Shown: positions 13,854 to 35,987, counted from the first letter of the stretch. The stretch: DNA of 40,971 nucleotides from Candidatus Omnitrophota bacterium (GCA_016198915.1 JACQHS010000110.1:1-40971), one strand, 5' to 3'. Program-made: numbers and translations. The notes: generated by a model not told the origin, from the sequence alone.

Positions 13854-15053
13854 ATGCGCGTGTGTATTCTCTATCAGCATGATCCCACGGCGCACTACTC
13901 CGGGGGGATTGGGACGTTCATCAACACCTTCATCAAGTACGCCCCGGCGGACTTCGACATCAGCCTGGTGGGCGTCGCGGTGGATCCACGAGCCCACCCG
14001 GTGGGGGCATGGCATCGCGTGCGGGTCGCCGGACGCCCCGTCGAGTTCCTGCCGATCGTGGCGGCGCACCCCGCCCTGCGTGATCGGGTACCCTTGAGCC
14101 TGCGATACACGTGGGCCCTCAAGCGGTATTGGAAGACCATCAATGTGCGGGACGCCGTGATCGAGCTGCACCGCATCGAGCCGGGCCTCGCGCTCAAGGG
14201 CCTGACGAACCCCAAAATCCTGTTCCTGCATGTGCACCCGGAGGATCTGTGCAACCCCATGACCGAGGTGGCCTGGGGCCGGTGGTTTCCCTGGTTGTAT
14301 TTCTGGCTCGAGCGTCAACTGATCAAGGACATGGCGCGCGTCTTCCTCGTCCGGCAGGATGCGGTGGGCTGGTACCGGAACCGGTATCCAAACCTGGCGG
14401 AGCGGTTTTCGTTCTTGCCCACGTGGATGGACGAAGAGGTGTTCGTATCGCTGCCGGAGGGCGAGCGCCGTTGGCAGAAACAGGAGCTGGCCCGGGCCCA
14501 CGGGTTGGATCCGAATGACCGCCTGCTGTTGTTCGTGGGACGCTTCGAAGGGCAGAAGGACCCGCTGCGCCTGCTGCAGGCGTTCCGTCAGGTCAATGGG
14601 CGTGAGAACCACACGCGGCTGGTCATGATCGGTGAGGGGGCTTTGGAGGGGGAGATCCGTGGGTATCTGGCGGCTCATAGGTTGACAGGTCGAGTGAGCA
14701 TCGTCCGGCCGCAGCCCCAGTCCGAGATTGCGAAGTGGATGAACGCGGCCGACTGTCTGTGCTTGAGCTCGGCGTTCGAGGGGATGCCCCGCGTGGTGAT
14801 TGAGGCGCTGCGCTGCGGTCTTCCCGTCGTCTCGACGGCCGTGGGTGAGGTGCCGCGTGTCCTCACGACTGATCAGGCGGGACGGCTGGTCCGCGAGCGG
14901 ACCCCTGAAGCCTTGGGAGCGGCGATCGGTGAGGTCCTCAGGCAGCCGCCGGATCGGGAAGCCTGCCAGGAGCAGGGGGCCCCGTTCACGGCCAAGAAGA
15001 TTCTGGGACAGGTCTATGCCTCATATCGGACGCTGGGTCAGCAGGCCGGATGA
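13854..15053 (+). CDS. Glycosyltransferase family 4
   Basis: 'LLFVGRFEGQKDPLRLLQAF', 'LVMIGEGALEGEI' and 'LSSAFEGMPRVVIEALRCGLPVVSTAVGEVPRVL'. Confidence 0.85.
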   Translation: MRVCILYQHDPTAHYSGGIGTFINTFIKYAPADFDISLVGVAVDPRAHPVGAWHRVRVAGRPVEFLPIVAAHPALRDRVPLSLRYTWALKRYWKTINVRDAVIELHRIEPGLALKGLTNPKILFLHVHPEDLCNPMTEVAWGRWFPWLYFWLERQLIKDMARVFLVRQDAVGWYRNRYPNLAERFSFLPTWMDEEVFVSLPEGERRWQKQELARAHGLDPNDRLLLFVGRFEGQKDPLRLLQAFRQVNGRENHTRLVMIGEGALEGEIRGYLAAHRLTGRVSIVRPQPQSEIAKWMNAADCLCLSSAFEGMPRVVIEALRCGLPVVSTAVGEVPRVLTTDQAGRLVRERTPEALGAAIGEVLRQPPDREACQEQGAPFTAKKILGQVYASYRTLGQQAG

Positions 15054-15871
15054 CGATGCGCAGCGTTGAGCTGTTCGGCATGCCGTTTGAGAACGTCACC
15101 ATGCCGCAGGCCCTCGAGCGCATCGACGGATTGGTGCGGCAACCAGGGCGCCGCTACGTCATGACCCCAAATATCGATGCGGTCGTGCGGTGGCCGAAGG
15201 ATCCTGAGTTCCGCGACGCCTACCAGCGGGCGGCGCTCATCTTTGCCGACGGCATGCCTATCGTCCTGGCGAGTCGGCTGCTGGGCTCTCCCCTGAAGGA
15301 GCGGATTGCCGGCTCTGATCTGTTTCCAAGGCTCTGTCGGCAGGCCGCCGAGCGGGGCCACAGCGTGTTCTTCCTCGGAGGCCAAGATGGGGTGGCCGAA
15401 CAGGCCGCCCGGAACCTGCGGGGACGCTTTCCGTCCCTTCGGGTGGTGGGCTGCTATGCGCCGCCGATCGGATTTCAGTTCGATGCGGCTGAACACGAGC
15501 GGATGGTGCAGCGTGTCAATTCGGCGCGTCCCGATCTGTTGTTCCTTGCGCTGGGCTGCCCAAAGCAGGAGAAGTGGATTGCCAAGCACATCCACGAACT
15601 TGAGGTAAAGGTGGCGGTCTGTGTGGGCGCGGCGATTGACTTTGAGGCCGGCACCGTCAGGCGAGCGCCCCGCTGGATGCAGCGCAGCGGGCTGGAGTGG
15701 CTCTGGAGGCTTGTCCGTGAGCCTCGGCGCTTGTGGCGGCGGTACCTGATCGAGGACACGGCGTTTGTCGGCCTATTTCTCAGCGAGTGGTGGCGTGTGT
15801 GCGTCAGGCGAGCGGAAGCCGGCGGGCCCGTTGCGTCGTCAGGGCCACTGCGCAGCGGTGAATCATCATGA
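15050..15871 (+). CDS. WecB/TagA/CpsF-family glycosyltransferase (GT26)
   Basis: 'FADGMPIVLASRLLG', 'VFFLGGQDGVAEQAA', 'LFLALGCPKQEKWI' and 'GLEWLWRLVREPRRLWRRYL'. ATGA overlap at both ends. Confidence 0.85.
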   Translation: MTMRSVELFGMPFENVTMPQALERIDGLVRQPGRRYVMTPNIDAVVRWPKDPEFRDAYQRAALIFADGMPIVLASRLLGSPLKERIAGSDLFPRLCRQAAERGHSVFFLGGQDGVAEQAARNLRGRFPSLRVVGCYAPPIGFQFDAAEHERMVQRVNSARPDLLFLALGCPKQEKWIAKHIHELEVKVAVCVGAAIDFEAGTVRRAPRWMQRSGLEWLWRLVREPRRLWRRYLIEDTAFVGLFLSEWWRVCVRRAEAGGPVASSGPLRSGESS

Positions 15872-18003
15872 GAGGATTTAGCACCGCGTCCTCTTCGTCG
15901 ATGTCCGCCTCTGTGAGCGTGGCACAGATTCGGCGCTGGGTGGGCCTCACGGTCCTTGGCCTGGCCGGCGTGTGGGTCGTCTTCGCGCAGCTCGTCGCAC
16001 CCCAGGCGATTCAGGCGGCCTACCACGGTGAGGGGGCCTCCGTTTTGAGTCACATCATCCGAGAGCTCGGCCAGCCGCTGGATGAGCTCCTGTGGCGCTG
16101 GGGCATGCTCACCCAGGCGGTCGTGCTCGGCTGCCTCGGTCTGTGGCTGCTCGTCTGGGTGACCACGAGTCCCGGCTTCTTCAAGCGGTTTGTGGGAGAG
16201 GCCACGCCGGGGACCCTGGGGGCCATCCGGATGCTGACGTGCGGCATCCTGCTCCTCCACACCCTGTGGGAGGGGCTGGCGAGCACCGCGCTGCTTCCCA
16301 GGGAGATGATCAATACCCCCGGAGGTATCATGCGCGTGCTGGCCCTCCTGCCCATCGGGTTTGAGCGCTTCCTGGCTAACGAGACTGCGCTCGGAGTCTT
16401 CCAGTGGGTGACCGGGGCGCTGCTGTTCTTGGGCGCGATCGGTTGGAGGACGCGGATCACGGTTCCATTGGGCGCCGTGGGCTACCTGCTCATGGGGGGG
16501 ATCTTTCGCCTGTACGCGTGGTTCTACCACACGGGCGTGATCCCGGTGTACGTGATGGCGGTGCTCTCGCTGACGCCCTGCGGGGACGGGTGGTCGGTCG
16601 ATCGTCTGCGGAAAGTGGCCAGAGGAGCGCCGGTGCCTCCTGCCGATCGGGCCACCGCCGTCTACGGATGGGCTCGGTACGCGTGCTGGGTGGTGATTGC
16701 CCTGCCGTACCTGGCGGCTGGGATGAGCAAGCTTCGCAATAGCGGGCTGACGTGGTGGAATGCCACGAACATGAGGATCTTCCTGTACCGGGATACCCTC
16801 AACCCGATGGGGTTTGAGTCCGAGCTGTCCTTGCGGCTCACCTCAGCCCCCGATGCGGTATTTGCGGTGTTGGGTCTCGTCGGGCTTCTTGCTGAGCTCG
16901 TCTTCGTATCGGTCCTCTTCTCCCGCTGGGCCCGCCGGATCCTGCCGTTTGTGGCGGCCGGCATGCACGCAGGGATTTTCCTTCTGCAGAACATCCTGTT
17001 TCTGGATCTCATGCTGCTCCAGCTGGCGTTCATCGATTGGACCAGGATCCGCACGGCGGCTGGCCGGTGGCTCGAGGCCCACCGAGGGACCCTTGAGGTC
17101 CTTTACGATGGGCAGTGCCCGCTGTGCGTCCGGAGCGTCCGTCTGCTGGGTCCGCTCGATCTGTTCAATCGGTTGCGCTGGATTGATTTTCGGACGTTGA
17201 ACCTGACGGACTACAACGCCGGGCATGGCGTGAGGCTCACGTCGAGTGAGCTGGAACAAGCGATGGCCGTCGTGTCGCGGAGAAGGACGCGCCAAGGGTT
17301 TAAGGCCTGGAGGGCCATCGCGCAGGCGATTCCGGCAGGCTGGCTTGTGGCCCCCTGGCTCTACGTGCCGGGGATCCCCTGGCTGGGTGAGCGGGTCTAC
17401 CGGCGCGTGGCGCAGAGTCGCCACAAGCTCTTCAAGTGCGATGCGGCTTGCGCACACGAGGGCGAGGCGGCGCAGGGGCTCGCCCCGCAGCCGAGGAGAG
17501 CTCCCAACGCGCTGCGGGGTCCTCTGGTGGTGTCCGCGTCGGCCATCGTGTTGCTGCTGTGCTGGATCTACCGTGTGGAGGAGTATCCGCTCACCGCCCT
17601 GCAGATGTACACGAAGCCCACGACAGGGATCGCGGAGTACTACAAGGTTCTGGCGCACCGGGCCTCCGGCGAGACCGCCACCGCCCGCATCAAGGAGGCC
17701 ATCCCCGCGATGACCGACGGGCGCTATCGCCGGGTCATCCGGATGTGCTTCAAGCCGGACCAGGTGCAGGTGTGCGAGAAGTTTCTTGCCGCGTGCGGGG
17801 CGGCCTTCAACGCACAGGCTCGCGCCGGCGAACGGGTCACCCATCTCGAAATCCAGAAATGGGCGTGGGATGTCCGCGCTAATCCCTCGGACCCTGAACA
17901 TGGGCGGCTGGCCGACCGTTTTCTCTTCTCGCTGGAGTCGAAGAAGTCCGTGGAGGCGCAAACGCTGCTTGTAGCGTTCGACGAAGTCGGACAGCGCCAA
18001 TGA
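15868..18003 (+). CDS. Fusion protein: HTTM (vitamin-K-dependent gamma-carboxylase-like) membrane domain + DCC/DUF393 CxxC thiol-disulfide oxidoreductase + TM + unknown C-terminal domain
   Basis: HTTM-like 'LGAIRMLTCGILLL', 'LFLGAIGWRTRI', 'GDGWSVDRL' and 'YLAAGMSKL' match human GGCX 'LAVFRFLFGFLMVL', 'LGMMLGLCYRI', 'HYWSVDGL' and 'FIAGVKKL'. DCC module 'LEVLYDGQCPLCVRSVRLL...GERVYRRVAQSRHKLF' (CPLC codons 17116-17127). Confidence 0.7.
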   Translation: MRGFSTASSSSMSASVSVAQIRRWVGLTVLGLAGVWVVFAQLVAPQAIQAAYHGEGASVLSHIIRELGQPLDELLWRWGMLTQAVVLGCLGLWLLVWVTTSPGFFKRFVGEATPGTLGAIRMLTCGILLLHTLWEGLASTALLPREMINTPGGIMRVLALLPIGFERFLANETALGVFQWVTGALLFLGAIGWRTRITVPLGAVGYLLMGGIFRLYAWFYHTGVIPVYVMAVLSLTPCGDGWSVDRLRKVARGAPVPPADRATAVYGWARYACWVVIALPYLAAGMSKLRNSGLTWWNATNMRIFLYRDTLNPMGFESELSLRLTSAPDAVFAVLGLVGLLAELVFVSVLFSRWARRILPFVAAGMHAGIFLLQNILFLDLMLLQLAFIDWTRIRTAAGRWLEAHRGTLEVLYDGQCPLCVRSVRLLGPLDLFNRLRWIDFRTLNLTDYNAGHGVRLTSSELEQAMAVVSRRRTRQGFKAWRAIAQAIPAGWLVAPWLYVPGIPWLGERVYRRVAQSRHKLFKCDAACAHEGEAAQGLAPQPRRAPNALRGPLVVSASAIVLLLCWIYRVEEYPLTALQMYTKPTTGIAEYYKVLAHRASGETATARIKEAIPAMTDGRYRRVIRMCFKPDQVQVCEKFLAACGAAFNAQARAGERVTHLEIQKWAWDVRANPSDPEHGRLADRFLFSLESKKSVEAQTLLVAFDEVGQRQ

Positions 18004-19949
18004 GGTCGAAGGTGTGGCTTGCGGTGCGCATCGGTGCTGTGGTTGGGGCGCTGGTGGGAGCTGCGGAGTGCCTCGCGTTGCTCCTGCGGATCCCGTCGTG
18101 GCCACTCGATACCCCCACGATCCCGGTGGCCATGATGATCTACGGGTTCATTGCGGCAGTGATGGCTGGGGTGTGGGGACTGGCCGCGTGGCGTCGTCTG
18201 GATCATCAGACGTTTCAAGTCAGAACGGTGATGTGTACGCTGTTAGCCATGACCTATTTGCTTGGGGGCTATTGGATTCACCGATGGTGGTCGCCTCAGC
18301 TCCTGGCGCTTCCCAGCCTCCTGGTGACTGGGTTGTGGACCCTGGCGTGGCTGATCGGAAGCTGGATCTTGCTGAGGCCTCCTGGACGGCCTTCAGCCTC
18401 CTTTGAGACCAGTTGGGTCCGTCCCCTTCGAGGACTGATGCTCGGACTGCTCGTGGTCGCCGGTGCGTCACTGATGCTGCCCTCCCTGTGGATCAGGACC
18501 CATCAGGTCCTCGGCGCACGGGACGTTCCCGGGGGGACTCAACGCCCGAATATCCTGCTGATTGTGATGGACACCGCACGGGCCGACCGTTTCTCCTCCT
18601 ACGGCTACCACCGCAAGACAACCCCCAACCTTGATCGCCTGGCCCAGGACGGCGTGCTGTTCGAGCGCGCAAGCTCAGCAGCCCCTTGGACGTTGCCTTC
18701 ACACGCCACGCTCTTTACCGGGCTCTATCCAGCCCAGCATCAAGCGGAACGGCCGCATCCGCGCTTGGACAGTCGTTTCGCGACGCTGGCGGAGCTCTTG
18801 TACGACCACGGCTATCAGACCGCAGGTTTTTCGAATAACCACTGGGTCAGCCGAGAGATGAACTTTCACCAGGGGTTTGAGCACTTTGACGACATGCTGG
18901 ACGGCGGCCGGCTGATCAACCGGCTTGCGGTGGTGCGCGTCATGAAGAAGGTCACAGGGCTTGTGACTCGACGCCTCGACGACGGTGCGGAAGCGACTAA
19001 TCAAAGCGTCAGACGGTGGCTCAAGACGGTCTTCGATCCCGGCCGACCGTTCTTTGTCTTCATCAACTACCGTGAGCCGCATTTTCCCTACAAGCCGCCT
19101 GAGGCCTTCCGGAGCCGTTTCCTTCGACACCCACGCGAACCGGTGGAAAAGGTGCTTGAGGTTGCTGCGAGCCTCCATCGGTTCGCTCCGGCTGCCCATC
19201 AGGCCGCTCGTGTCGATCGGCCGATGCGGCAGCTCCTGAACGACCTCTACGACGGGGAGATCGCGTACCTGGATGCGAAGATTGGAGAGCTGTTAGGGGA
19301 GCTGGAGACCCGCCGGCTCCTCGACGATACCGTGGTCATTGTGACCAGCGACCACGGGGAGAACATCGGCGACCACGGGCTCTTCGGCCATCAGTTCTCC
19401 GTGTATGAAACCCTGCTGCACGTCCCCCTGGTCCTGCGCTACCCCGCCGGCTTGCCCGCCGGCAGGCGGGTGGCAGAGCGCGTCTCCCTGGTGGACCTGC
19501 TGCCCACCCTGATCGAACTCCTCTCCCTCGCGGCGCCGAGCCTTCAGGCGGCCCTGCCGGGTCACAGTTGGGTCGGTTCGTCCCTCGTCGTGGCGCCGGA
19601 CCTGCCCATCCGATCCGAGTATGCGGCTCCGGTTCCCATGCTGGCACGAAGCAGGACGCGGGGACAAGCGATCGACGAGCGTTCTTTCATGCGGAGCCTG
19701 AAGAGCCTTTCCCGTGGCGGCGTCAAGTTCATCTGGGCCTCCGACGGACACCATGAACTCTACGACCTGCGTCACGATCCCGGAGAATCGCAGAATGTCA
19801 TCCAGCAGTTTCCGGACACAGCGAGAGCGCTAAAGGCGGAGCTGGACCAGTGGTTGACGGCCATGCAGTCCGCAGGCACTCCGGAGGACGTCGAGCCGAT
19901 GAGGGAGTGGACGCGCAAGGAACTGCGAGCCCTGGGGTATCTCCAATGA
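18000..19949 (+). CDS. Membrane-anchored alkaline-phosphatase-superfamily (sulfatase-like) enzyme, Thr-nucleophile type, paralog 1
   Basis: N-terminal TM bundle, then 'NILLIVMDTARADRFSSYGY', 'APWTLPSHATLFTGLYP' (Thr codon 18690-18692) and 'VIVTSDHGENIGDHGLFGH'. ATGA overlaps at both ends. Confidence 0.8.
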   Translation: MRSKVWLAVRIGAVVGALVGAAECLALLLRIPSWPLDTPTIPVAMMIYGFIAAVMAGVWGLAAWRRLDHQTFQVRTVMCTLLAMTYLLGGYWIHRWWSPQLLALPSLLVTGLWTLAWLIGSWILLRPPGRPSASFETSWVRPLRGLMLGLLVVAGASLMLPSLWIRTHQVLGARDVPGGTQRPNILLIVMDTARADRFSSYGYHRKTTPNLDRLAQDGVLFERASSAAPWTLPSHATLFTGLYPAQHQAERPHPRLDSRFATLAELLYDHGYQTAGFSNNHWVSREMNFHQGFEHFDDMLDGGRLINRLAVVRVMKKVTGLVTRRLDDGAEATNQSVRRWLKTVFDPGRPFFVFINYREPHFPYKPPEAFRSRFLRHPREPVEKVLEVAASLHRFAPAAHQAARVDRPMRQLLNDLYDGEIAYLDAKIGELLGELETRRLLDDTVVIVTSDHGENIGDHGLFGHQFSVYETLLHVPLVLRYPAGLPAGRRVAERVSLVDLLPTLIELLSLAAPSLQAALPGHSWVGSSLVVAPDLPIRSEYAAPVPMLARSRTRGQAIDERSFMRSLKSLSRGGVKFIWASDGHHELYDLRHDPGESQNVIQQFPDTARALKAELDQWLTAMQSAGTPEDVEPMREWTRKELRALGYLQ

Positions 19950-21952
19950 GGGGAAGGACCTCAAGGGTCACAAAGGGTCTGAGCGGTTTCAGAACCTTCA
20001 GCGCTGCCCTGCTGCAAGGTGTGCTCTGCGGGATCGCGGTCGGATGGTTGACCGGGTTCTTGGAAGTCGTGGTGTTCTTGCCCAACCCCACAGGGACGGC
20101 TCACCACTTCCTCCTGCCCGCGATGCTGTTCTACAGCGTGGTCTGGTCGGTTGTGGCGTTGGCGTTCGGGGTGACGCTGTGGCTGGCGTGCCGGCTGTTC
20201 AATAGGCCGCTTCGGCCTGGCGAGCCTCTGACGCGCTGGTACCTGGCCGTGCTGATTCCCTTGGGGCTGTTCGTGATCGCCGGCGGGCATATCAACATGC
20301 GGTATCTTCCCTCCTTTACCGATGGGCGCTCCTTGCTCTTTGATGCCGTGTTTTTGGCGGCGAATGTGCTGCTGGGGTTGTGGCTCTATCGGCATGGGGT
20401 GGGGTGGGGATGGCGCTTCATCAGGAGGCCATCACGCAGGCTCTGGTGGGCGCTGAGCGCGGGAGGCGTGGCGATCGGCCTTGTGGCGGGCAGCGTGTTG
20501 CTCTGGGGAAGACCTCACGTGGCTCCAACGGTGCGGCCGGCGAGGGCGGATGCCGTCCCCAACGTGCTGTTGATTGCGATCGACGCCTTGCGGCCCGACC
20601 ACGTCTCCGCCTACGGCTATGAGCGGCGGACCACGCCCAGCCTCGATCAACTGGCGCGCGAGGGAGCGCGGTTCACCGAGGCCTACGCGAATTCATCCTG
20701 GACGAAGACCTCGGTGCCGACCATGTTGGCGTCGATCTACCCCTCGGCGCACAACGTGCATCACATGGCGTCCGGGGTGCCGGAATCCCTCTTGCTGCTG
20801 CCTGAGGTGCTGCAATTGCACGGCTATGCGACGGGGATCTTTTCGGCGAATTCCTTCGTCTCGCCGCTCTTTGGTTTTGACCAAGGGGTTGAGGAGTTCT
20901 ATCACGAAGACGTGTCGTTCTTCAAAAATCTGATGTTGGGCCACATCCTGGCGAGTTTGCGCCAGTACTCCCCAGCGATCACCTGGGTCTATCGGGGGCT
21001 GATAAATCTTGACCTGCCGGCGCCCTTTGGCAACCGGAGGAACATCGCAGCACCCGGCTTGAACAAGGCCTTGCTCGACTGGGTTCGCACGCTGGAGGGC
21101 CGGCCGTTCTTTGCGTACATGCATTACATGGAACCGCACACGCCGTACGCGCCGCCGGCGCCCTTCGACACCCTGTTTGATCCCGCGTACCGGCGTCCCT
21201 ATGAGACCGACGGCCCGATCTCTGAGGGCTTTGAGCCGTTTGAACGGAGCGACGCCCTCACTCCTCAACGGCGGCAGAACCTGATTGCGCAATATGACGG
21301 GGAGATCGCCTATGTCGATCAGATGATCGGTGAGCTGTTCCGGAGGCTCAAGGAGTTGGGGCTCTATGAGCGCACGGTGGTCATCATCACGGCGGACCAC
21401 GCGGAAACCTTCTACGAGCATGGCGGGTGGGGCCACGGAAAATCGCTCTTCAATGAGGTGCTGCGTGTGCCCCTCCTCATCCGCTACCCGACTGTCTTCC
21501 CGGCGGGCACGGTGGTGGAAGCGGTGGCCCGTCACGTGGACCTGATGCCGACGATCCTGGAACTCTGTTCGATTGCGCCGGCCGGCTTCATGGAGGGAAC
21601 GGGGCTGGTGTCCCTCGTGCAGGATCCGGAGGCGGCCGGCGACGCGAGGCCGGTGTACAGTGAACTCTTGCGACCGGCTCGGGGATCGTACGGACGGGCT
21701 GTGCAGGACGGCGACTTCAAGCTCATCGAAGTCCACACGCACGATGAGGAACGTTGGCTGCTGTTCGATCTTGCGCAGGACCCGGGGGAGCAACACCCGC
21801 TGGATGTGGAGGCGCATCCGATGGGCCCGCCCCTCAAGGAGCTCCTGGCCTCGTTTCAAGAACGGGCAGCGCGGATGGCGGTGGCCCCGAAGACCGTCAA
21901 GATCGATCGGGAGACACGGGATCGCCTGCGAGCCGTTGGCTACCTGCACTAG
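19946..21952 (+). CDS. Membrane-anchored AP-superfamily (sulfatase-like) enzyme, Thr type, paralog 2 (divergent)
   Basis: TM bundle, then 'NVLLIAIDALRPDHVSAYGY', 'SSWTKTSVPTMLASIYP' (Thr codon 20702-20704) and 'VIITADHAETFYEHGGWGHG'. ATG 19946 overlaps the upstream TGA. Confidence 0.8.
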   Translation: MRGRTSRVTKGLSGFRTFSAALLQGVLCGIAVGWLTGFLEVVVFLPNPTGTAHHFLLPAMLFYSVVWSVVALAFGVTLWLACRLFNRPLRPGEPLTRWYLAVLIPLGLFVIAGGHINMRYLPSFTDGRSLLFDAVFLAANVLLGLWLYRHGVGWGWRFIRRPSRRLWWALSAGGVAIGLVAGSVLLWGRPHVAPTVRPARADAVPNVLLIAIDALRPDHVSAYGYERRTTPSLDQLAREGARFTEAYANSSWTKTSVPTMLASIYPSAHNVHHMASGVPESLLLLPEVLQLHGYATGIFSANSFVSPLFGFDQGVEEFYHEDVSFFKNLMLGHILASLRQYSPAITWVYRGLINLDLPAPFGNRRNIAAPGLNKALLDWVRTLEGRPFFAYMHYMEPHTPYAPPAPFDTLFDPAYRRPYETDGPISEGFEPFERSDALTPQRRQNLIAQYDGEIAYVDQMIGELFRRLKELGLYERTVVIITADHAETFYEHGGWGHGKSLFNEVLRVPLLIRYPTVFPAGTVVEAVARHVDLMPTILELCSIAPAGFMEGTGLVSLVQDPEAAGDARPVYSELLRPARGSYGRAVQDGDFKLIEVHTHDEERWLLFDLAQDPGEQHPLDVEAHPMGPPLKELLASFQERAARMAVAPKTVKIDRETRDRLRAVGYLH

Positions 21953-21968
21953 AAACGCTGAGGATGGC

Positions 21969-23918
21969 ATGAGGCAGCAGTTGGTGGTGGCGATGACGAT
22001 CGGCGGAATGGTCGGGGCCTTCTGCGGGGCCGTCGAGGCGGGCGTGTTCTTGGTGCGCATCTCGTGGGGTCCTCTGGATACGCACACGATCGCCAAGGCG
22101 ATGGTGCTCTATGGACTGCCCAACGCGATCATCGTTGGGTTCTGGGGACTGGTCGCGGGGCGAGGGATGGATCTCAGGACGTTTGAGATCAGGACGCTGG
22201 CGTTCAGTCTCCTGACTATGGGCTATCTGTTCGGAGGGTTGTACGTGAACCGGCTGTGGCTGCCTGAGATCACGAAACTTCCGAGCCTGGTTTTCACCGG
22301 ATCCTGGACCCTCGCATGGCTGGCCGGCGCCTGGGCGCTGCTGAAGCTCCGCACACGCCCGGGGCACCCGCCCCGCACCGATCTTGCCTGGATCGGCGCT
22401 CTGCGGATGGCGGCGATCGGACTCGCCGTTGTGGCGGGGCTGTCGTTCGTGCCTCCGCTCCTGGCGGGCAGGCCCACCCGAGCTGGTGGCGCGGCGCCGA
22501 CCGTGCTGGGGCCTGCCGGGCGCCCGAACGTCCTGCTCATCGTGATGGACACCACGCGAGCCGACCGTTTGTCTTCGTACGGATATCCGCGCAACACGAC
22601 CCCGCATCTGGACCGCTTCGCCCAAGAGGGGGTCCTGTTCGAACAGGCGAGCGCGACGGCCCCGTGGACCCTGCCGTCGCATGCGTCGCTGTTCACCGGG
22701 CTGTATGTGGCCCAGCATGGAGCGGACACGTCGCACCGACGGCTCGATGATCACCTGGTCACGCTGGCTGAGCTGCTCCGCGAGCAGGGCTATCAGACGG
22801 TTGGCTTCTCCAACAATGGAGCCGTCAGCGTGGCGATGAACTTTCAGCAAGGGTTTGAGGTGTTCGAAGAGTCGCGCTTTTTCAGGGGGCAGGCGTTTAG
22901 GCAGCTCGCAATCGTTCGGCTCTTGGACCGATTTCAACTCCCGCAGCGCGGGGGCAACGCGCACGCCGCAGAGACCAACAAGCGCATCAGGGCCTGGTTC
23001 GAGCGCCGCTATGACCGCCGTCGGCCGTTCTTCCTGTTCATCAACTACATGGAGCCGCATTTTTCCTATGAGCCGCCTGAGCCGTACCGCAGGCGGTTCC
23101 TCCGACTGCCGAACGAGGTGAGGCGATCGCTCCGGAGGGGGCATGCGGTGATCAAGAGTCCCCCGCCGGTCTCCCTGGACGAGCCGATACGCGAAACCCT
23201 CGGGGACCTCTACGATGGGGAGCTTGCGTATCTCGATATGCGGATCGGCGAGCTGTTGGACGAGTTCAGGGCGCGCAAGCTGCTGGACGACACCGTAGTG
23301 ATCGTGACGAGCGACCACGGCGAGAACATCGGCCATCACGAAATTCTGGGGCATCACGACTGTGTGTACGAGACCCTGCTGCATGTTCCGCTGATCATCC
23401 GGTATCCGAAGGCGCTGCCGGCCGGTGCGCGGGTTGGCCAGCCCGTCTCGCTGGTGGATGTGCTGCCGACGCTACTCGCACTGCTGGAGGTGAGGGCCCC
23501 CGCCCTCGAGGCGTCGCTGCCGGGCTACAGCTTCGTGGGGTCCGGCTTGGCGGTGCGGGAGGATCGGGTCATCCTGTCCGAGTACGAGATCGCACGTCTC
23601 GGGCCGCAGGGCGCCGGGGGGTCGGGACGGACGAATGCAACAGCGGATGCGACGGCGACGGCGAAGCTGAAGAGTCTACGTGAGGGCGCGCTCAAGTTCA
23701 TCCGGTCGCCAGACGGGCGGCATGAGCTCTATGACCTCGAGCGGGATCCGGCCGAGTCGCGCAACCTGATCGCAGAGTTGCCAGGGCAGGCGGCGGCGAT
23801 GGAGGCGAAGCTCGTGAGACACTTCAAGGCCCTGAAGCCGGTCGGCTCACCCGAGCCGGTGCCTGAGCTCGATGCGGTGACGCGCGAGCAGCTCAGAGCG
23901 CTTGGGTATCTTCATTGA
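21969..23918 (+). CDS. Membrane-anchored AP-superfamily (sulfatase-like) enzyme, Thr type, paralog 3 (close to paralog 1)
   Basis: 'NVLLIVMDTTRADRLSSYGY', 'APWTLPSHASLFTGLYV' (Thr codon 22668-22670) and 'VIVTSDHGENIGHHEILGH'. GAGGA at 21960-21964 precedes ATG 21969. Confidence 0.8.
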   Translation: MRQQLVVAMTIGGMVGAFCGAVEAGVFLVRISWGPLDTHTIAKAMVLYGLPNAIIVGFWGLVAGRGMDLRTFEIRTLAFSLLTMGYLFGGLYVNRLWLPEITKLPSLVFTGSWTLAWLAGAWALLKLRTRPGHPPRTDLAWIGALRMAAIGLAVVAGLSFVPPLLAGRPTRAGGAAPTVLGPAGRPNVLLIVMDTTRADRLSSYGYPRNTTPHLDRFAQEGVLFEQASATAPWTLPSHASLFTGLYVAQHGADTSHRRLDDHLVTLAELLREQGYQTVGFSNNGAVSVAMNFQQGFEVFEESRFFRGQAFRQLAIVRLLDRFQLPQRGGNAHAAETNKRIRAWFERRYDRRRPFFLFINYMEPHFSYEPPEPYRRRFLRLPNEVRRSLRRGHAVIKSPPPVSLDEPIRETLGDLYDGELAYLDMRIGELLDEFRARKLLDDTVVIVTSDHGENIGHHEILGHHDCVYETLLHVPLIIRYPKALPAGARVGQPVSLVDVLPTLLALLEVRAPALEASLPGYSFVGSGLAVREDRVILSEYEIARLGPQGAGGSGRTNATADATATAKLKSLREGALKFIRSPDGRHELYDLERDPAESRNLIAELPGQAAAMEAKLVRHFKALKPVGSPEPVPELDAVTREQLRALGYLH

Positions 23919-23929
23919 GGAAACCACTG

Positions 23930-26900
23930 ATGGTAGCTGAGCGTATCCGAGGAGCGGCAAGCGAAGTCGCAGGGATCTCCGCGAGGCCTCTGCGGCTCGT
24001 GATGATGGCGCTGGTCTGCGCGTTGGTGAGCATCGGGTTCGGCGGCGACTCGAGCGCGGCTTTGGCGGTTCAGGATGCGCTTACCAATGGTGGGTTCGAA
24101 CATCCCGAGGACGGTGCGCAGAGCCCGGAGGGCTGGGAAGTTGGGGGGCGGACGGAGCGCGTCGAGTCCTCCGCGGATGGTGGGGGGGCATGGGCGTTGC
24201 GGCTGTCCTCCACAACGGAGGAGCCGAATCCGAGGGCGTCGCAATCGCTGGACGTTGTCCAGCCGCTTGCGACGGCGGTCACGGTGGCGGGCCTGGTGAG
24301 GATCAAGGATGTGCATCCCATCGGTGACGGGAAGGGCGCCGCCAAGGTCACCGTCAGCTTCTTGTCGGTGGATGGCCGCGTGATCCGTCGCAAGACGATC
24401 CGAACATGGGATGGCACGTTCGGCTGGCGCCCGTGGTCCGGCTCCGTGCGCATCCCGAAGGGCGCCGGCCGGCTTGAGCTCGCGCTCGAGCTGGAGGAGG
24501 CCCTGGGACAGGCCACATTCGATGCCGTGCAGCTGCTGTGGGGCCTGCCGGACGACCATGACCGCGAGAACCTCGTCGTCGATGGCGGGTTCGAGTATGT
24601 GAACCCCCTGTCGGTCTGGGAACTGGATCAGGGAGCGAAAGTGGTGTATCCCGGCGCCGAAGGCCATGCCGCATTGGAGATTTCACGGGACCAACCCGGG
24701 CACGCTGCCGCCCGTCAGCGGCTCGTGTTCGCTGAGGCGTCGATCCGGGAGGCGACACTCACGTTTGACCTCAAGCTGAAGAAGGTCAAGGCACGAGCGC
24801 CCGGGGGAGGCGCGAAGGTGGAGCTGGGCTTCTGGGATCGTGAAGGCGAGCCCGTGGGGAAGCCGGTTGTGGTGGGTCCATGGGCAGGGACACAGGAGAC
24901 TTGGAAGTCGCGCGCCAAACAAGTGCGGGTTCCGCCTGCGGCAAGCGAGGCGACGCTGGGTCTGTTGCTGGATCAGGCGCGCGGAACGGCCTGGTTCGAT
25001 GGGGTGCGGCTGGCGGCGCACGGGGCCGAGGGGCCGCTGGTGCGTCGTCTGGAGTCCCGAACGGACATCGCGACCTGGAGAGTCATTGAGCCCAGCATCG
25101 GACCCTTGGAGCCGCCGTTTGATGCGAGCGGGTTGCTCAATCCGCCCGCGGGGCAGCACGGATTCCTGACCGTGGAGGACGGCCGTTTTGTCTTCGAGGA
25201 CGGGACACCCGCGCGCTTCTTCGGCGTCAATATTGACGCGGCCGCCAACTTCCCGAGCCATGAGCACGCTGACCGCTTCGCCGAGCGGCTGGCGCAGCTT
25301 GGGTGCAACCTCGTGCGGCTGCATCATCTGGATGCCCCGTGGGCCGACCCCAACATCTTCGCTGCCGAATTCGAGGACACCCAGCATCTCTCGCGCGAGA
25401 GCCTGGACCGGCTTGACTACTTCATCGCGCAGCTCAAGGCGCGGGGGATCTACATCTACATGGATCTGTTGGTCAGCCGCCAGTTCAAGTCCGGGGATGG
25501 CGTGCCGGCCTACCGGCAGCTCTCGCGAGGGGCGAAGATCGCCGCCCAGTACAGCCCGCGGCTGATTCAGCTGCAGAAGGCGTATGCGCGCGATCTGCTC
25601 ACCCACTATAACCGGTACACGCGGACGCGGCTGGTCGAGGAGCCGGCGCTCGTCCTGGTTGACCTGATCAACGAGAGTTCGCTCGCGGCTGACTCGAAGC
25701 GGTTCAAGGAGCTCCCAGGGCCCTACCGCGATGAGCTGCAGCTGCTCTGGGGGGAATATCTGTCCGGTCAGGGCGTGGATCGCGCCACGATGGACGCGGA
25801 GCGCTATCTTGAAGTCGACGATCCGTTCGTGCAGGGATTCTACACGAACCTCCAGCAGCGCTACTTTGACGAGCTGTACGGCTACCTCCGCGGGCTCGGG
25901 CTTTCGATTCCGATTGCGGGAAGCAACCGCAGCACCCTGTCGCTGAGGACCTGGGAGCTTGCGACCAACGCCACACTGGATTTCATTGATCGGCATGACT
26001 ACTGGGACCATCCGAAGGGCGGGTACGGGGACCTGGTGCGATTCCACAATCGCTCGATGATCGAAGGCGGCCAGGAGCACCATCCGATCGCCAAGCTGAG
26101 TGTACAGCGTGTGGCGGGCGTGCCGTTCGTGGTGAGCGAGTGGAACATCCCCTGGCCCAATGAGTACCGGGCGGTCGGTCCCCTCCTCATGGCGGCCTAT
26201 GCCTCATTTCAGAATTGGGACGGCCTACTCCTCTTCACCTACGATGGGGATCTCGCCGCCACGCGAATCGCGAATAACTTTGATGTCAGTACAATGCCGG
26301 AGCAGTTCCTGCAGCTTCCAGCCGCAGCTCGGCTCTTCCACCGCCGAGAGGTCCAGCCGGCGCGTCTCACTCGCGCGTATCCCATCGACGCAGAGCACCA
26401 GAGCATCAGCCCGGGGCTTCCGCTTCGGCACGGTGTAGCGCGCGTTGCGGGGGATGCCGCACCACCCAAAGCGCTGGCCATGGCGAGCAACCCCTGGGTG
26501 AGCGATACCGGCGAGCTGGCCTGGGATGAACGGCACGGGCGCGTCTCGATCAAGACGGCTCGTGTACAAGCCGTTGTCGGACAGATGGGGGACGGACCGC
26601 TGTCGCTTCCTGATGCGACGTTCTCGGTGGAGACGCCTTTTGCCTCCGTGGTGCTCTCGAGCCTGGATGAGCAGCCGGTCGTGAGCTCGCGGCACCTGTT
26701 GCTGACGACGGTCGCGCGATCGGAGAACACCGGGACGGTCTATAACGCGACGCGGACGCTGCTGCGGGACAGCGGCACGGGCCCTATCCTCATGGAGCCG
26801 GTGATGGGCTCCGTATCCATGCCGCTGGGCGGGCGTCGACCGACCGGGGTGTTTGCGCTGGATACCACTGGACGCCGGGTGAGCGAGGTGGCGGCTTCCG

Positions 26901-26974
26901 TGCGTGAGGGCTCGATCGAGGTGCCGCTGGGCGAAGCCCTCGCCTATGAAATCGTGTTTGAGGAGCCCTCATGA
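23930..26974 (+). CDS. Secreted multidomain glycoside hydrolase (two CBM-like modules + clan GH-A TIM-barrel-like domain)
   Basis: Signal peptide 'LRLVMMALVCALVSIGFGGDSSAALA'. Two 'NGGFE'/'DGGFE' jelly-roll-type modules. 'GFLTVEDGRFVFEDGTPARFFGVN...LGCNLVRLHHLD', 'LINESS' (candidate acid/base NE) and 'FVVSEWN' (candidate nucleophile). ATG 23930 lies 8 nt after GAGGA. The track start 23915 is a TTG. Confidence 0.65.
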   Translation: MVAERIRGAASEVAGISARPLRLVMMALVCALVSIGFGGDSSAALAVQDALTNGGFEHPEDGAQSPEGWEVGGRTERVESSADGGGAWALRLSSTTEEPNPRASQSLDVVQPLATAVTVAGLVRIKDVHPIGDGKGAAKVTVSFLSVDGRVIRRKTIRTWDGTFGWRPWSGSVRIPKGAGRLELALELEEALGQATFDAVQLLWGLPDDHDRENLVVDGGFEYVNPLSVWELDQGAKVVYPGAEGHAALEISRDQPGHAAARQRLVFAEASIREATLTFDLKLKKVKARAPGGGAKVELGFWDREGEPVGKPVVVGPWAGTQETWKSRAKQVRVPPAASEATLGLLLDQARGTAWFDGVRLAAHGAEGPLVRRLESRTDIATWRVIEPSIGPLEPPFDASGLLNPPAGQHGFLTVEDGRFVFEDGTPARFFGVNIDAAANFPSHEHADRFAERLAQLGCNLVRLHHLDAPWADPNIFAAEFEDTQHLSRESLDRLDYFIAQLKARGIYIYMDLLVSRQFKSGDGVPAYRQLSRGAKIAAQYSPRLIQLQKAYARDLLTHYNRYTRTRLVEEPALVLVDLINESSLAADSKRFKELPGPYRDELQLLWGEYLSGQGVDRATMDAERYLEVDDPFVQGFYTNLQQRYFDELYGYLRGLGLSIPIAGSNRSTLSLRTWELATNATLDFIDRHDYWDHPKGGYGDLVRFHNRSMIEGGQEHHPIAKLSVQRVAGVPFVVSEWNIPWPNEYRAVGPLLMAAYASFQNWDGLLLFTYDGDLAATRIANNFDVSTMPEQFLQLPAAARLFHRREVQPARLTRAYPIDAEHQSISPGLPLRHGVARVAGDAAPPKALAMASNPWVSDTGELAWDERHGRVSIKTARVQAVVGQMGDGPLSLPDATFSVETPFASVVLSSLDEQPVVSSRHLLLTTVARSENTGTVYNATRTLLRDSGTGPILMEPVMGSVSMPLGGRRPTGVFALDTTGRRVSEVAASVREGSIEVPLGEALAYEIVFEEPS

Positions 26975-28422
26975 TCAAACGCTCAGAGGTGTTCGTCAAA
27001 CAGCTCGTGCTGCTAATCGATCTGGCGGTTCTGGTGGTGGCGTTTCTCGCCACCTATGCCCTCCGACAGTCGGTTCAGACGTTCTATCTGCTGGACCTCA
27101 TTCCCGGCCGCGAGGCGATCGGCGAGCTCTATCCGCTGGATCGCTACCTCTGGTTGTTGCTGATCATCCTGCCGCTCTGGATTGGCATACTCTACGCGCT
27201 GGGCGGCTACCGGGAGCTTCGCAACAAATCGTACCGTCAGATTGCGGCGGTGGTGCTGAAGGCCTGCGCGTTGGGACTGCTGTTCTTCGGCTCCTTCGTC
27301 TTTGTCTTGAAGCTCCATTATGTCAGCCGACTCTTCATGGGGATGTTTTTCCTGCTCAGCTTCCTGCTGCTGGCGTACGAGCGGACGGTCGTGATCGTGT
27401 GTTTCCATCTCATGCTGCAGCGGGGGTACTTCCATCGGAATCTCCTCCTAGTGGGGACGGGCCGGCGCGCCCGCGCGGTCATCAAGGATATCCAGGGCCA
27501 CCAGAACTGGGGGGTCGGGTTTGTCGGACTCCTCGATGCCGATCCGGGCATGGTGGAGCAGCACGTGGAGGGTGTCGAGGTCATCGGCACCCTGGAGGAG
27601 CTGCCCCGCATGCTGCAGGAGCGCGTCATCGATGAGGTGGTCTTCGTCGTACCGCGGACCTGGATGGCCAGGATTGAGGAAGCGATCCGCGCCTGCGAGC
27701 TGGCGGGTGTGCGGGCCTCGGTGGCGGTGGATCTGTTCAACATGCGCTTTGCCAAATCGCATCCCTCCGCCCTCAATGGCACGCCGTTCATCAGCTTCGA
27801 TACGACGTCGACGGATCAATGGCAGGTCGCGCTCAAGCGCGTGCTCGACGTGGTGATCGCGGGCCTCGGCCTCGTGGTCCTGTTGCCGCTGTTTGTGGTG
27901 GTCAGCCTGCTGATCAAGGCGACCTCCTCGGGCCCCGTGCTGTTCCAGCAGGTGCGGTGCGGGCTCAACGGTCGTCGGTTTACCCTCTACAAGTTCCGCT
28001 CAATGGTCATGGATGCGGAGGCGAAGCGAGCGGAACTGGCGCACCTGAACGAGCTCAACGGCCCGGTCTTCAAGCTGACCAACGATCCGCGCCTGACGCC
28101 GGTCGGCCGCTGGCTGCGGAAGATGAGCCTCGACGAGTTGCCTCAGCTGTACAACGTCTTCAAGGGGGAGATGAGCCTGGTGGGACCGCGACCGCCCATC
28201 CCGGGCGAGGTGGAGCAGTATCAAGCCTGGCAGCGCAGGCGGCTCAGCATGCGACCGGGGATCACCGGCCAATGGCAGGTGAACGGCCGCAATCATATCG
28301 TGGACTTTGACAAATGGATGCGGCTGGACCTCGAGTACATCGATCGGTGGTCTCTGGCGCTCGATGTGAAGATTCTGGCCAAGACGATCCCGGCGGTGTT
28401 CTTCGGGGTCGGGGCCAAATAG
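26971..28422 (+). CDS. Polyprenyl-phosphate sugar phosphotransferase (WbaP-type priming enzyme, bacterial sugar transferase family)
   Basis: N-terminal TMs plus a central Rossmann-like region. 'RVLDVVIAGLGLVVLLPLFVV', 'GPVLFQQVRCGLNGRRFTLYKFRSM', 'DELPQLYNVFKGEMSLVGPRPP' and 'RPGITGQWQV'. Confidence 0.9.
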   Translation: MIKRSEVFVKQLVLLIDLAVLVVAFLATYALRQSVQTFYLLDLIPGREAIGELYPLDRYLWLLLIILPLWIGILYALGGYRELRNKSYRQIAAVVLKACALGLLFFGSFVFVLKLHYVSRLFMGMFFLLSFLLLAYERTVVIVCFHLMLQRGYFHRNLLLVGTGRRARAVIKDIQGHQNWGVGFVGLLDADPGMVEQHVEGVEVIGTLEELPRMLQERVIDEVVFVVPRTWMARIEEAIRACELAGVRASVAVDLFNMRFAKSHPSALNGTPFISFDTTSTDQWQVALKRVLDVVIAGLGLVVLLPLFVVVSLLIKATSSGPVLFQQVRCGLNGRRFTLYKFRSMVMDAEAKRAELAHLNELNGPVFKLTNDPRLTPVGRWLRKMSLDELPQLYNVFKGEMSLVGPRPPIPGEVEQYQAWQRRRLSMRPGITGQWQVNGRNHIVDFDKWMRLDLEYIDRWSLALDVKILAKTIPAVFFGVGAK

Positions 28423-28439
28423 CGCAGACAACCGAGCCC

Positions 28440-30161
28440 ATGCAGCGAGACCTGGATTGGTTATCGGCGAAGCAGTTTGACCTCCTCGTCATCGGGGGAG
28501 GCATCTACGGCGCGTGCGCGGCCTGGGAGGCGGCACTGCGCGGGCTGTCGGTTGCGCTGGTCGAGCGAGGAGATTTTGGGCAGGCGACGTCGGCGAACAC
28601 GCAGAAGATTGTCCACGGAGGCCTGCGCTACCTCCAGTCGTTTGACGTGAGGCGGATGCTGGAGTCCATTCGGGAACGGAGGGCCTTGTTGCGGGTTGCG
28701 CCGCATCTCGTGCACCCCTTGCCATTCCTGATGCCGATCAATGGCCGGGGCCTCCGAAGCAAAGCGGCGATGGCGGCCGCATTCCTGGTGAATGACCTGG
28801 TGAGCTGGGACCGAAACCGAGAGATGCGCGATCCAGCCCAGCACATCCCTCGCTGCCGCGTGGTATCGAGAGATGAATGCCTCCGACTGGCACCCGGCAT
28901 CGCCAAGGAGGGACTGACCGGCGGGGCCCTGTGGTATGACGGGCAGATCGACAACTCGGAGCGGCTGACCCTCTCGTTTCTGGAGGGTGCCGTGGACCTT
29001 GGGGCAGCGATCGCGAACTACGTCCGGGTCACCAAGTTCCGCTTGGAGGGCAAACGGGTGACCGGCGTGGAGGCGATCGATACCGTGACGGGCAGAAGGC
29101 TCGTCGTCCGAGCCCGCGTCGTGCTGAATACGAGCGGGCCCTGGGTCGATCGGGTGCTGGATCTCCTGGAGGCTCAATCGGTTTCCAGGAAGACGCGCCT
29201 CGTGAAGGCGATGAATCTCGTGACACGCCCGCTGACGCAGGGTGTGGCGCTGGCTGTCCCGAGTGCTGGCGGCAGCAAGACACGCTCACGTCTGTGGTTC
29301 ATGACCCCATGGCGGGATCGCTCAATCGTCGGGACCGCCTATGCGCCCTCCGATGGGGACCCGGAACACTGTCGGGCAAGCGCTGCAGACATTCGGAACA
29401 TGATTGATGTCACCAACCAGGCCTACCCCCCCGCACAGCTCACGACGGACGATGTGGCATTCGTGCATGTCGGGTTGGTGCCGGCGGCTCGTTCGGCAGC
29501 GGAGCCCGATGGCGTGGCGCTCGAGCCCCATTACCAGATCATCGATCATCGACGGCAGAACGGGATCGAGGGGCTCATCTCTGTGGTCGGCGTGAAGTAC
29601 ACCACGGCGCGCGACGTCGCTGCGAAAGCGGTGGATGCCGTCCTGACCAGGTTGGGGAGACCCGTACACAGCAGCCGCAGCGGCGAGACCCCGGTGCATG
29701 GAGGGGCTATCAGCAACGTGCGCAAGTTTCTCGATGACGCCATTGACCGGGCCCCTGGGGGCTTGGGGGCGACGGTTGTTCGGCACCTGGTGCGTGGCTA
29801 CGGCTGTGCGTACCCGGAGGTGCTCAGGTGGCTCGATGAGGACGCGGCGCTCGGCGAGCCTCTCGACGGCTCCTCCGAAGTCATCAAGGCGGAAGTGGTC
29901 CACGCGGTGCGGGAGGAGATGGCGCTTACGCTTGGAGATGTCGTCTTTCGGCGGACCGATCTGGGGTCGCGAGGCGACCCCGGCGAGGCCTGCCTGCGCC
30001 GGTGCGCGCAGATCATGGCGCGGGAGCTTGGGTGGGGTCCCGCGCGCGCAGCCGAGGAAGTGCGCGAGGTCCAGGCCGCGTTTCCAAAGCGCTCGAAGGC
30101 CGGGGCGCATCTGAGCGTCGTCGACGCTCCCGTCGGCACGCACGAAGAGGTCGCCGCATGA
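28440..30161 (+). CDS. FAD-dependent glycerol-3-phosphate dehydrogenase/oxidase homolog (GlpD-like)
   Basis: 'FDLLVIGGGIYGACAAWEAALRGLSVALVERGDFGQATSANTQKIVHGGLRYLQ' and 'APHLVHPLPFLMP'. ATG 28440 lies 17 nt after the upstream stop. Confidence 0.75.
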   Translation: MQRDLDWLSAKQFDLLVIGGGIYGACAAWEAALRGLSVALVERGDFGQATSANTQKIVHGGLRYLQSFDVRRMLESIRERRALLRVAPHLVHPLPFLMPINGRGLRSKAAMAAAFLVNDLVSWDRNREMRDPAQHIPRCRVVSRDECLRLAPGIAKEGLTGGALWYDGQIDNSERLTLSFLEGAVDLGAAIANYVRVTKFRLEGKRVTGVEAIDTVTGRRLVVRARVVLNTSGPWVDRVLDLLEAQSVSRKTRLVKAMNLVTRPLTQGVALAVPSAGGSKTRSRLWFMTPWRDRSIVGTAYAPSDGDPEHCRASAADIRNMIDVTNQAYPPAQLTTDDVAFVHVGLVPAARSAAEPDGVALEPHYQIIDHRRQNGIEGLISVVGVKYTTARDVAAKAVDAVLTRLGRPVHSSRSGETPVHGGAISNVRKFLDDAIDRAPGGLGATVVRHLVRGYGCAYPEVLRWLDEDAALGEPLDGSSEVIKAEVVHAVREEMALTLGDVVFRRTDLGSRGDPGEACLRRCAQIMARELGWGPARAAEEVREVQAAFPKRSKAGAHLSVVDAPVGTHEEVAA

Positions 30162-35979: not shown

Positions 35980-35987
35980 TTAAGAAC

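Follow-up and report, generated by a model that had tools for sequence, protein, structure and literature searches.

Closest described enzymes and the sulfatase-like trio

In the alkaline phosphatase (AP) superfamily, LtaS, OpgB (MdoB) and GacH build or decorate extracytoplasmic glycopolymers from a phospholipid donor, and the relatives of EptA include the polysaccharide-modifying enzymes Opt, EptC and OpgE. To our knowledge, all characterised superfamily enzymes that are anchored by transmembrane (TM) segments and use Thr or Ser (EptA, LtaS, OpgB, BcsG and GacH) are transferases, and all characterised Thr-nucleophile members (NPP, PafA, PhnA, EptA and LtaS) handle phosphorus esters. The motif T-F-P-N-H...T-G-L-Y-P of the ENPP enzymes has the same spacing as T-x-P-x-H-x4-T-G-L-Y-P. 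According to SulfAtlas, Cys or Ser occupies the nucleophile position in all 4058 aligned S1 sulfatase sequences and the signature Arg is found in 99%, and PF00884 also holds many Thr proteins that are not to be regarded as formylglycine (FGly) sulfatases. Here we describe three tandem genes for such Thr proteins, P1, P2 and P3, in an exopolysaccharide (EPS) operon on a 40,971-bp contig (the window, that is, the whole stretch of DNA analysed), which belongs to a metagenome-assembled genome (MAG) of Candidatus Omnitrophica/Omnitrophota and has almost every gene on the + strand. The database entry 100% identical to P1 is labelled 'MAG: sulfatase [Candidatus Omnitrophica bacterium]', and published work merely lists 'sulfatase' genes in EPS clusters. 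The general point that PF00884 contains Thr non-sulfatases is already published, and the clade to which the trio belongs appears uncharacterised.

P1–P3 appear to represent a widespread Thr clade on the scaffold of sulfatases and phosphonate monoester hydrolases (PMHs), occurring here as TM-anchored A/B pairs within the EPS operon. An earlier note, made from the sequence of this DNA, had described three tandem genes with an N-terminal TM bundle and an AP-superfamily domain. Indeed, each protein has five TM helices followed by a PF00884 domain, matched at E values of 1e-49 to 5e-53 (170–181 bits in the Pfam search), and SGSH_C subdomain matches were also obtained in the trio. The strings quoted in that note are all present, namely LLIVMDTARADR, LLIAIDALRPDH and LLIVMDTTRADR, TSDHGE or TADHAE, and WTLPSH or WTKTSV, with PLDT.TI and PSL..TG.WTLAWL occurring in P1 and P3 only and not in P2. 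The three genes and the P1–P3 residues discussed below are located as follows.

18000–19949, + strand: P1, A-type Thr 'sulfatase-like' protein, 649 aa (PF00884, E 1.2e-49)
about 18003–18515, + strand: TM bundle of P1, residues 2–172
about 18537–19946, + strand: catalytic domain of P1, residues 180–649
18570–18572, + strand: Asp191 of P1, putative first metal ligand (Asp13/14 region of sulfatases; Glu246 of MCR-1)
18690–18692, + strand: Thr231 codon of P1 (ACG), at the formylglycine/EptA-Thr position
18702–18704, + strand: His235 of P1, in place of the signature Arg (Arg55 of P. aeruginosa AtsA, PAS)
19080–19082, + strand: His361 of P1, equivalent to SmCS His201, PAS His211 and MCR-1 His395
19350–19391, + strand: D451-H452-G-E454 ... 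H459 ... H464 of P1, with H464 equivalent to the sulfatase Lys (SmCS Lys309) and to MCR-1 His478
19946–21952, + strand: P2, B-type copy, 668 aa, with the motif W-T-K-T-S-V-P-T-M-L-A-S, TADHAE and all catalytic residues retained
20702–20704, + strand: Thr codon of P2 (ACG) at the nucleophile position
21969–23918, + strand: P3, A'-type copy, 649 aa
22668–22670, + strand: Thr codon of P3 (ACC) at the nucleophile position

Nucleophile position and active-site residues

The phmmer alignments to solved sulfatases place T231 of P1, in exact register, on their nucleophile (TLPSHATLFTG opposite STPARAGLLTG of 7oz8), and with PAS the residues C51/P53/R55/T60/G61 correspond to T231/P233/H235/T240/G241. 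The claim of the earlier note that Thr, and not Cys or Ser, occupies this position is thereby borne out, and the three Thr codons lie exactly where it had put them. In a hidden Markov model (HMM) alignment of 273 homologues of P1 and P2, the position is occupied by Thr in 250 sequences, by Ser in 10 and by Ala in 9, so its presence in the trio is not due to chance. The formylglycine signature C/S-x-P/A-x-R is replaced by T-L-P-S-H in P1 and P3 and by T-K-T-S-V in P2. Judged by these residues, P1–P3 cannot be classical FGly sulfatases.

The earlier note had seen no formylglycine-generating enzyme (FGE) or radical-SAM maturase in the window, and likewise no Pfam match to these families was found among 26 open reading frames (ORFs) of the + strand and one of the - strand, a set that covers every + strand ORF of at least 200 aa taken for a gene and excludes the shorter ORFs of the poorly coding 38.3–41 kb end. 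We also surveyed 36 diverse family loci, taking two genes per side (125 immediate neighbours), and neither FGE nor anSME is among the 25 commonest neighbour families. An NCBIfam match to 'manganese-dependent arylsulfatase' was considered as a lead to an FGly-independent sulfatase and rejected, as the E. faecium enzyme uses Cys61/FGly.

Comparison with the active site of choline sulfatase (PMC5870055) demonstrates that the P1 family retains the metal ligands and His201 (H361 in P1), with changes at other positions. The Lys309/375 position is taken by H464, which has the same 13-residue spacing after the Asp and stands opposite the Lys in three independent alignments. Lys102/113 is replaced by Asn279/280, the His104/115 position is variable, the signature Arg55 is His in the A type and Val or Thr in the B type, and the second Asp of the sulfatase 'DD' motif is Thr or Ala. 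With the Arg, Lys and His replaced, none of the cationic residues that hold the sulfate ester or the FGly hydrate remains. Twelve residues (D191, R194, D196, H247, N280, H361, D451, H452, G453, E454, H459 and H464) are almost invariant in the 273-homologue alignment, the His464 equivalent being present in 272 of the 273 sequences. The seven-residue catalytic set D-T-H-D-H-E-H is whole in 105 of 123 family ORFs from the fetched loci, and P1, P2 and P3 each retain all seven residues together with H247, N280 and H459.

What replaces the sulfatase residues resembles the active site of EptA. E. coli EptA aligns with P1 at an hhalign probability of 97.9% and about 23% identity, over the catalytic core only. 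In this alignment, D191 of P1 pairs with a Glu of EptA, T231 with the second Thr of G-T-A-T-A-V-S, H361 with the His of S-H-G-P, D451-H452-G-E454 with D-H-G-E, and H464 with the His located 13 residues past the Asp. In MCR-1, the Zn1 ligands are Glu246, Thr285, Asp465 and His466, and the Zn2 histidines are His395 and His478 (PMC5175174). The catalytic Thr, the Zn1 ligands and the Zn2 His pair of the EptA/MCR-1 set are matched by P1 residue for residue, with D191 in place of Glu as the acidic Zn1 ligand, and the conserved residues H361, H464, H459, H247 and E454 are candidates for second-Zn ligands. The alignments to sulfatases and to EptA/MCR-1 agree with the earlier statement that the metal ligands are kept.

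The scaffold itself points elsewhere. The AlphaFold2 (AF2) model of P1, built on 70 homologues (pLDDT 90.2, pTM 0.89), has five TM helices at the N-terminus, followed by the AP core and a C-terminal subdomain, and the best 50 Foldseek matches listed for it are all FGly sulfatases or PMHs (E about 1e-22, target-normalised TM-score 0.62–0.71), with no EptA or MCR structure among them. The top NCBIfam models are arylsulfatase and choline sulfatase, both far below their cut-offs. S1 sulfatases and PMHs, such as Sinorhizobium choline sulfatase, Agrobacterium/Rhizobium PMH and P. aeruginosa AtsA, are nearest to the trio in sequence and in predicted fold, and share with it the register of the signature helix (x-x-P-S-x-x-x-L-x-T-G), the DHG metal motif and the His201/211 equivalent. 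Unlike these enzymes, the trio has Thr in place of Cys or Ser and hence no formylglycine, carries an N-terminal bundle of five TM helices, and is encoded in biosynthetic rather than catabolic or sulfur-scavenging surroundings. On both fold prediction and sequence comparison, the catalytic domain is assigned to the sulfatase/PMH branch and not to that of EptA or LtaS.

Likeness to NPP is seen in the N-terminal part of the domain. PF01663 (NPP) scores 43–61 bits for the trio vs a cut-off of 23, PF00884 scoring threefold higher, and its best stretch in P1 covers the N-terminal 60 profile positions, in the region that holds D191 and the Thr motif. The nucleophile segment is matched by a Xanthomonas NPP at E 8e-5. 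The NPP/ENPP nucleophile is an unmodified Thr at the start of a helix, as is proposed for the trio; the C-terminal part of the trio is instead sulfatase-like. The idea that the motif segments are nearer to NPP or EptA than to sulfatases was dropped, because in searches with these segments only, sulfatases still came first, followed by NPP and LptA. The best description of the residue pattern would be a sulfatase/PMH scaffold bearing an NPP/EptA-type Thr-metal-His active site.

These data bear on the possibility that P1–P3 are nevertheless genuine sulfatases or sulfate-editing enzymes for a sulfated EPS, which would use the Thr directly or via an unknown modification. The scaffold, the C-terminal subdomain and the overall best matches are those of S1 sulfatases, the A type keeps the P-S...L-x-T-G part of the signature, a homologue in one locus (L004) adjoins two sulfotransferase genes, and the family is present in haloarchaea. 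However, formylglycine is not known to form from Thr, other residues stand in place of the Arg, both Lys and the His with which sulfatases bind the sulfate and the FGly hydrate, neither the scanned ORFs of the window nor the frequent neighbours of the 36 loci include FGE or anSME, and the Pro is not kept in B-type copies, which together make this explanation improbable. Still less probable is that the trio has no catalytic role and that its dead enzyme fold serves sensing, scaffolding or regulation, as in YejM/LapC. Pseudo-enzyme partners do occur in the family, as indicated by a TM-anchored W-A-P-A-H sub-clade (P0031–P0042), in which Ala stands in for the Thr and Gln for the H361 equivalent (D-A-Q-D-H-E-H). 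One of its genes, P0036 (10001–11881 in locus L005), lies directly downstream of a Thr-type copy, and its product is likely a pseudo-enzyme partner; P1–P3, in contrast, keep the complete set of catalytic residues listed above.

Membrane bundle, paralogous clades and the proposed reaction

The trio shares with EptA/LptA/MCR-1 the arrangement of five TM helices followed by an AP-superfamily domain that is extracytoplasmic in those enzymes, and, by prediction, with LtaS, OpgB and GacH a multi-TM anchor joined to an extracellular Thr-nucleophile metal-dependent domain. The loops assigned to the inside contain 8.6 Lys and Arg residues vs 1.6 for those assigned to the outside (positive-inside count over 76 homologues), predicting a cytoplasmic N-terminus and a catalytic domain outside. 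The earlier suggestion of an LtaS/EptA/OpgB-type layout thus stands as far as the TM bundle, the outside Thr domain and the EptA active-site residues are concerned; membership in any of the three families does not. PF08019, the TM domain of EptA, has no Pfam match in P1–P3, NCBIfam models give the trio 15–46 bits for EptA/MCR vs cut-offs of 500–1250, among them about 45 bits vs cut-offs of 500–660, and 17–37 bits for LtaS vs a cut-off of 970, and E. coli OpgB aligns at an hhalign probability of 88% in the core only, with a poorly aligned nucleophile region. A further difference from EptA/MCR-1 is the sulfatase-type subdomain at the C-terminus of the trio. A common origin of the TM bundle and the TM domains of EptA or OpgB was considered, and no such homology was detected by Pfam or hhalign. 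As the trio falls outside the EptA, LtaS and OpgB families, the likeness would lie in layout and chemistry and would not reflect descent.

The TM bundle is homologous between two clades of copies, A and B, and several of its residues are conserved in both: E23 (98/97%), Y48 (96/100%), N94, P99 and S106. TM helix 1 carries GxxxGxxxG and E23, and all five residues fall on the outer-leaflet side in the predicted topology. Conservation of such residues in both clades suggests that the bundle is probably more than an anchor.

The clades were delineated in a neighbour-joining tree of 76 TM-anchored homologues, which has two deep branches, A (W-T-L-P-S-H-A-S-L-F-T-G) and B ([WRH]-T-[KR]-x-S-[TV]-A-S-x-x-T-S). 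The A and B copies of locus L087 group with P1 and P2, respectively, and P3 falls into a separate A lineage (P0010); identity is 53% between P1 and P3 and 35% between P1 and P2. Since the three proteins fall into A, B and a different A lineage, the gene order reads as A-B-A', in line with the arrangement proposed in the earlier note, and P3 is placed by the tree as an older paralogue within clade A. An A copy followed by a B copy with a 4-bp overlap is also found in L087 and L088, and the order in L089 is A, a DCC-like gene, B. Among the 26 fetched loci with more than one copy, the combination is A+A in 15 and A+B in 9. The notion of P2 as a decayed, pseudogene-like copy was rejected, given its conserved B clade and the retention of every catalytic residue.

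At least 3272 homologues match at E <= 1e-10 among the candidates scored, and the family occurs in Planctomycetota, Chloroflexota, Acidobacteriota, Omnitrophota, haloarchaea and Bathyarchaeia, among others, with Tautonia sociabilis and Halosimplex aquaticum among its cultured carriers. The named matches are labelled 'sulfatase' or 'arylsulfatase A-like enzyme', and the sampled top matches have Thr. The commonest of the 125 neighbours at the surveyed loci are GT4 (15), PF01663 (11) and further copies of the family (7), other frequent families being GT2, polysaccharide deacetylase, Wzx, Wzy and sugar epimerases. The setting of the family is biosynthetic, not catabolic.

We propose, with a probability of about 0.6, that P1–P3 work outside the cytoplasm as phosphoryl-transfer enzymes with a Thr nucleophile, their target being the EPS or its lipid-linked intermediates. 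Each protein would be held in the inner membrane by its five TM helices, its N-terminus lying on the cytoplasmic side and its catalytic domain being exposed at the outer surface. The Thr, left unmodified, would serve as nucleophile and bind a divalent metal, for which D191, T231, D451 and H452 are the putative ligands, and catalysis may proceed via a covalent phospho-Thr intermediate. H361 and H464, with E454, would take over from the His-Lys general-acid pair of sulfatases and probably make up a site for a second metal or for the leaving group, as in EptA/MCR-1. The substrate may be a mono-anionic phosphate diester or a phosphonate-ester-like group, and the enzymes would act during Wzx/Wzy-dependent EPS assembly, on a flipped lipid-linked glycan, on the polymer, or with a phospholipid as donor. 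Phosphoryl rather than sulfuryl chemistry is suggested by the residue pattern and by the phosphorus esters handled by all the characterised Thr-nucleophile members. Conservation of the A-B pair and the translational coupling of its genes suggest that the two activities cooperate or reside in a hetero-oligomer, A' being an additional paralogue.

Addition or removal of phospho-substituents on the exported polymer is plausible. By analogy, transfer of such a substituent is slightly favoured, as a tentative choice, over pure hydrolysis, since the TM bundle is conserved with polar residues toward the outer face, several paralogues are found per cluster, and the characterised TM-anchored relatives named above are all transferases. 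Hydrolysis is nonetheless a strong rival, although on balance rather unlikely: the proteins would then be ecto-phosphodiesterases or pyrophosphatases that release the polymer or repeat unit from undecaprenyl diphosphate, trim phospho-substituents or recycle the lipid carrier. Hydrolases are the nearest in both fold and sequence, the nucleophile segment matches NPP while PF01663 matches the N-terminal part of the catalytic domain, soluble relatives have identical catalytic residues and no membrane domain, and the location of the genes between those for the WecG-type and priming transferases makes them part of lipid-linked assembly. The polar residues of the bundle that face the outer leaflet and, as far as we know, the uniform transferase activity of the TM-anchored Thr/Ser relatives argue the other way, and several paralogues per cluster suit several decorations better than a single release step.

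Several observations weigh against the proposed extracytoplasmic phosphoryl transfer. Most of the ~470-aa relatives (P0046–P0120) have the same catalytic residues and no signal peptide, their catalytic domain beginning within the first 5–15 residues, and are presumably cytoplasmic; a few have Tat (P0067, P0072, P0073, P0102) or lipoprotein or signal-anchor N-termini (P0084, P0089). An active site of one type thus seems to operate both in the cytoplasm and outside it, which would mean that the family chemistry needs no outer-leaflet lipid donor. In L004, two sulfotransferase genes (PF00685/PF13469; 174–1981) lie directly upstream of a TM-type member, P0016, which is 44% identical to P1. The best 50 structural neighbours listed for the P1 model all hydrolyse sulfate or phosphonate esters and none is a transferase, a conserved gene for making a phospho-donor was not found at the loci compared, and neither biochemical data nor a characterised member of the Thr clade was found in the literature. 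As for possible conserved suppliers of a phospho-donor, a GlpD-like gene in the window and an APH-type kinase gene in L002 and L087 were considered and rejected, as they are not common to the loci.

The exopolysaccharide operon and its conserved neighbours

P1–P3 are located inside a Wzx/Wzy-type EPS operon. The 5' part of the gene order comprises a FecR-like protein, an EpsL-type beta-barrel (PF10082), a Wza-like exporter and a Wzc-like co-polymerase/kinase, followed by two Wzy_C proteins, a Wzx flippase, GT2, GT4, a GT9-like protein, GT4 and a WecG-type transferase. In the middle stand a 711-aa DCC1-like membrane protein, P1, P2, P3, a 1019-aa protein and a Bac_transf priming transferase. 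The 3' part contains a GlpD-like flavoprotein, GT4, an epimerase, an LPG_synthase_TM flippase-like protein, a hexapeptide acyltransferase, two GT2s and a small PF01663 protein. The genes that flank the trio are as follows.

15868–18003, + strand: 711-aa polytopic membrane protein with a GGCX/HTTM-like fold (Foldseek) and a DCC1-like insert (PF04134)
23915–26974, + strand: 1019-aa protein with an N-terminal signal or anchor, overlapping the P3 stop and the priming transferase start by 4 bp each
26971–28422, + strand: Bac_transf priming sugar-phosphate transferase of the EPS operon

At 13854–28422 on the + strand, successive genes are linked by 4-bp start/stop overlaps, from GT4 through WecG, the GGCX-like 711-aa gene and P1 to P2, and again from P3 through the 1019-aa gene to the priming transferase, the sole break being a 16-nt gap before P3. 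This chain points to one tightly coupled operon and indicates translational coupling over about 14.5 kb. In particular, the stop of the 711-aa gene overlaps the P1 start by 4 bp, and the ATG of P2 overlaps the P1 stop by 4 bp (ATGA), which makes a longer GTG ORF from 19850 unnecessary. On the - strand, ORFs of 420–495 aa lie opposite real genes at 16843–18105, 20693–22096 and 21897–23384; they are the usual artefact of coding sequence with 63–65% G+C, not genes.

Downstream of the priming transferase, the GlpD-type FAD glycerol-3-phosphate dehydrogenase/oxidase homologue (28314–30161, + strand; 240 bits, below the equivalog cut-off) is missing from the syntenic loci examined. The segment 32470–35979 (+ strand) contains the LPG_synthase_TM gene (TIGR00374), the hexapeptide acyltransferase gene and the two GT2 genes, of which L088 shares all except the acyltransferase gene. 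A second AP-superfamily gene is found at 35505–37226 (+ strand; PF01663, E 4.6e-10), with the motif P-T-T-E-T-L-S-T-I-I-T-G-A-R-P-N-E-H-G, an SSDHGQE string and no TM segment. The full 573-aa PF01663 ORF from 35505 was rejected, since its N-terminal ~157 residues share their DNA with a GT2 gene read in another frame and are probably not translated, the similarity there being a frame artefact; the real start is probably near 35976–36000. In L002, L088 and L089, a TM-anchored PF01663 protein of ~650–720 aa takes the place of this small one.

The 711-aa protein contains a DCC1-like DxxCxxC thiol-disulfide oxidoreductase domain inserted at residues 411–523 and a C-terminal beta domain. Its AF2 model (46 homologues, pLDDT 81.8) matches only the human vitamin K-dependent gamma-carboxylase (GGCX) in the PDB, with 12 matches at E 2e-5 to 4e-4 and the next at E 0.4. 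A homologue is located beside the TM-type family genes in all seven loci examined, in L089 without the DCC domain. Three further homologues (L090–L092) lie between Wzm/Wzt ABC-transporter genes, beside a Dlt-like acylation set and with no sulfatase-like gene nearby. The 711-aa protein is therefore not specific to the trio, and its candidacy as an obligate partner or maturase was rejected.

For the 1019-aa protein, no Pfam or NCBIfam family match was found, and a GH5 mannanase was its sole PDB match, at a weak E of 0.009. Homologues with 46–49% identity are encoded in L002, L004 (two copies) and L089, that is, in four of the seven loci with the window counted, and the protein may be an EPS-specific glycanase of such clusters. 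In L004, P0016 is followed by a Fic protein, the two homologues of the 1019-aa protein, and a DCC1-like protein.

The regular presence of the 711-aa protein beside the trio raises one further explanation, namely that this GGCX-like redox protein works with the Thr enzymes. In its boldest version the redox protein would modify them after translation, for example by oxidising the Thr to a 3-oxo residue that, once hydrated, would act as a formylglycine mimic. If this were true, Thr oxidation would be a new maturase-dependent cofactor, and the trio would be true ester hydrolases for sulfated or phosphorylated EPS. Against it point the occurrence of the 711-aa family without sulfatase-like genes, the Thr shared by the presumably cytoplasmic relatives, and the loss of the cationic sulfate-binding residues, so that we regard it as the least probable of the readings. 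The bacterial GGCX-like redox membrane protein, which occurs regularly in glycan clusters, is worth study by itself.

For inferred functions, the label matters: 'sulfatase' annotations on Thr proteins inflate the sulfatase repertoires deduced from metagenomes. The clade unites a sulfatase/PMH scaffold with what appears to be an EptA-like Thr/His active site, and would be a useful natural intermediate for studying switches of nucleophile and of substrate charge in the AP superfamily. The clade also points to a conserved, so far unstudied step in which glycans of the Wzx/Wzy and ABC-transporter pathways are modified or processed outside the cytoplasm, with the GGCX-like membrane protein and the secreted protein of ~1000 aa as recurring partners.

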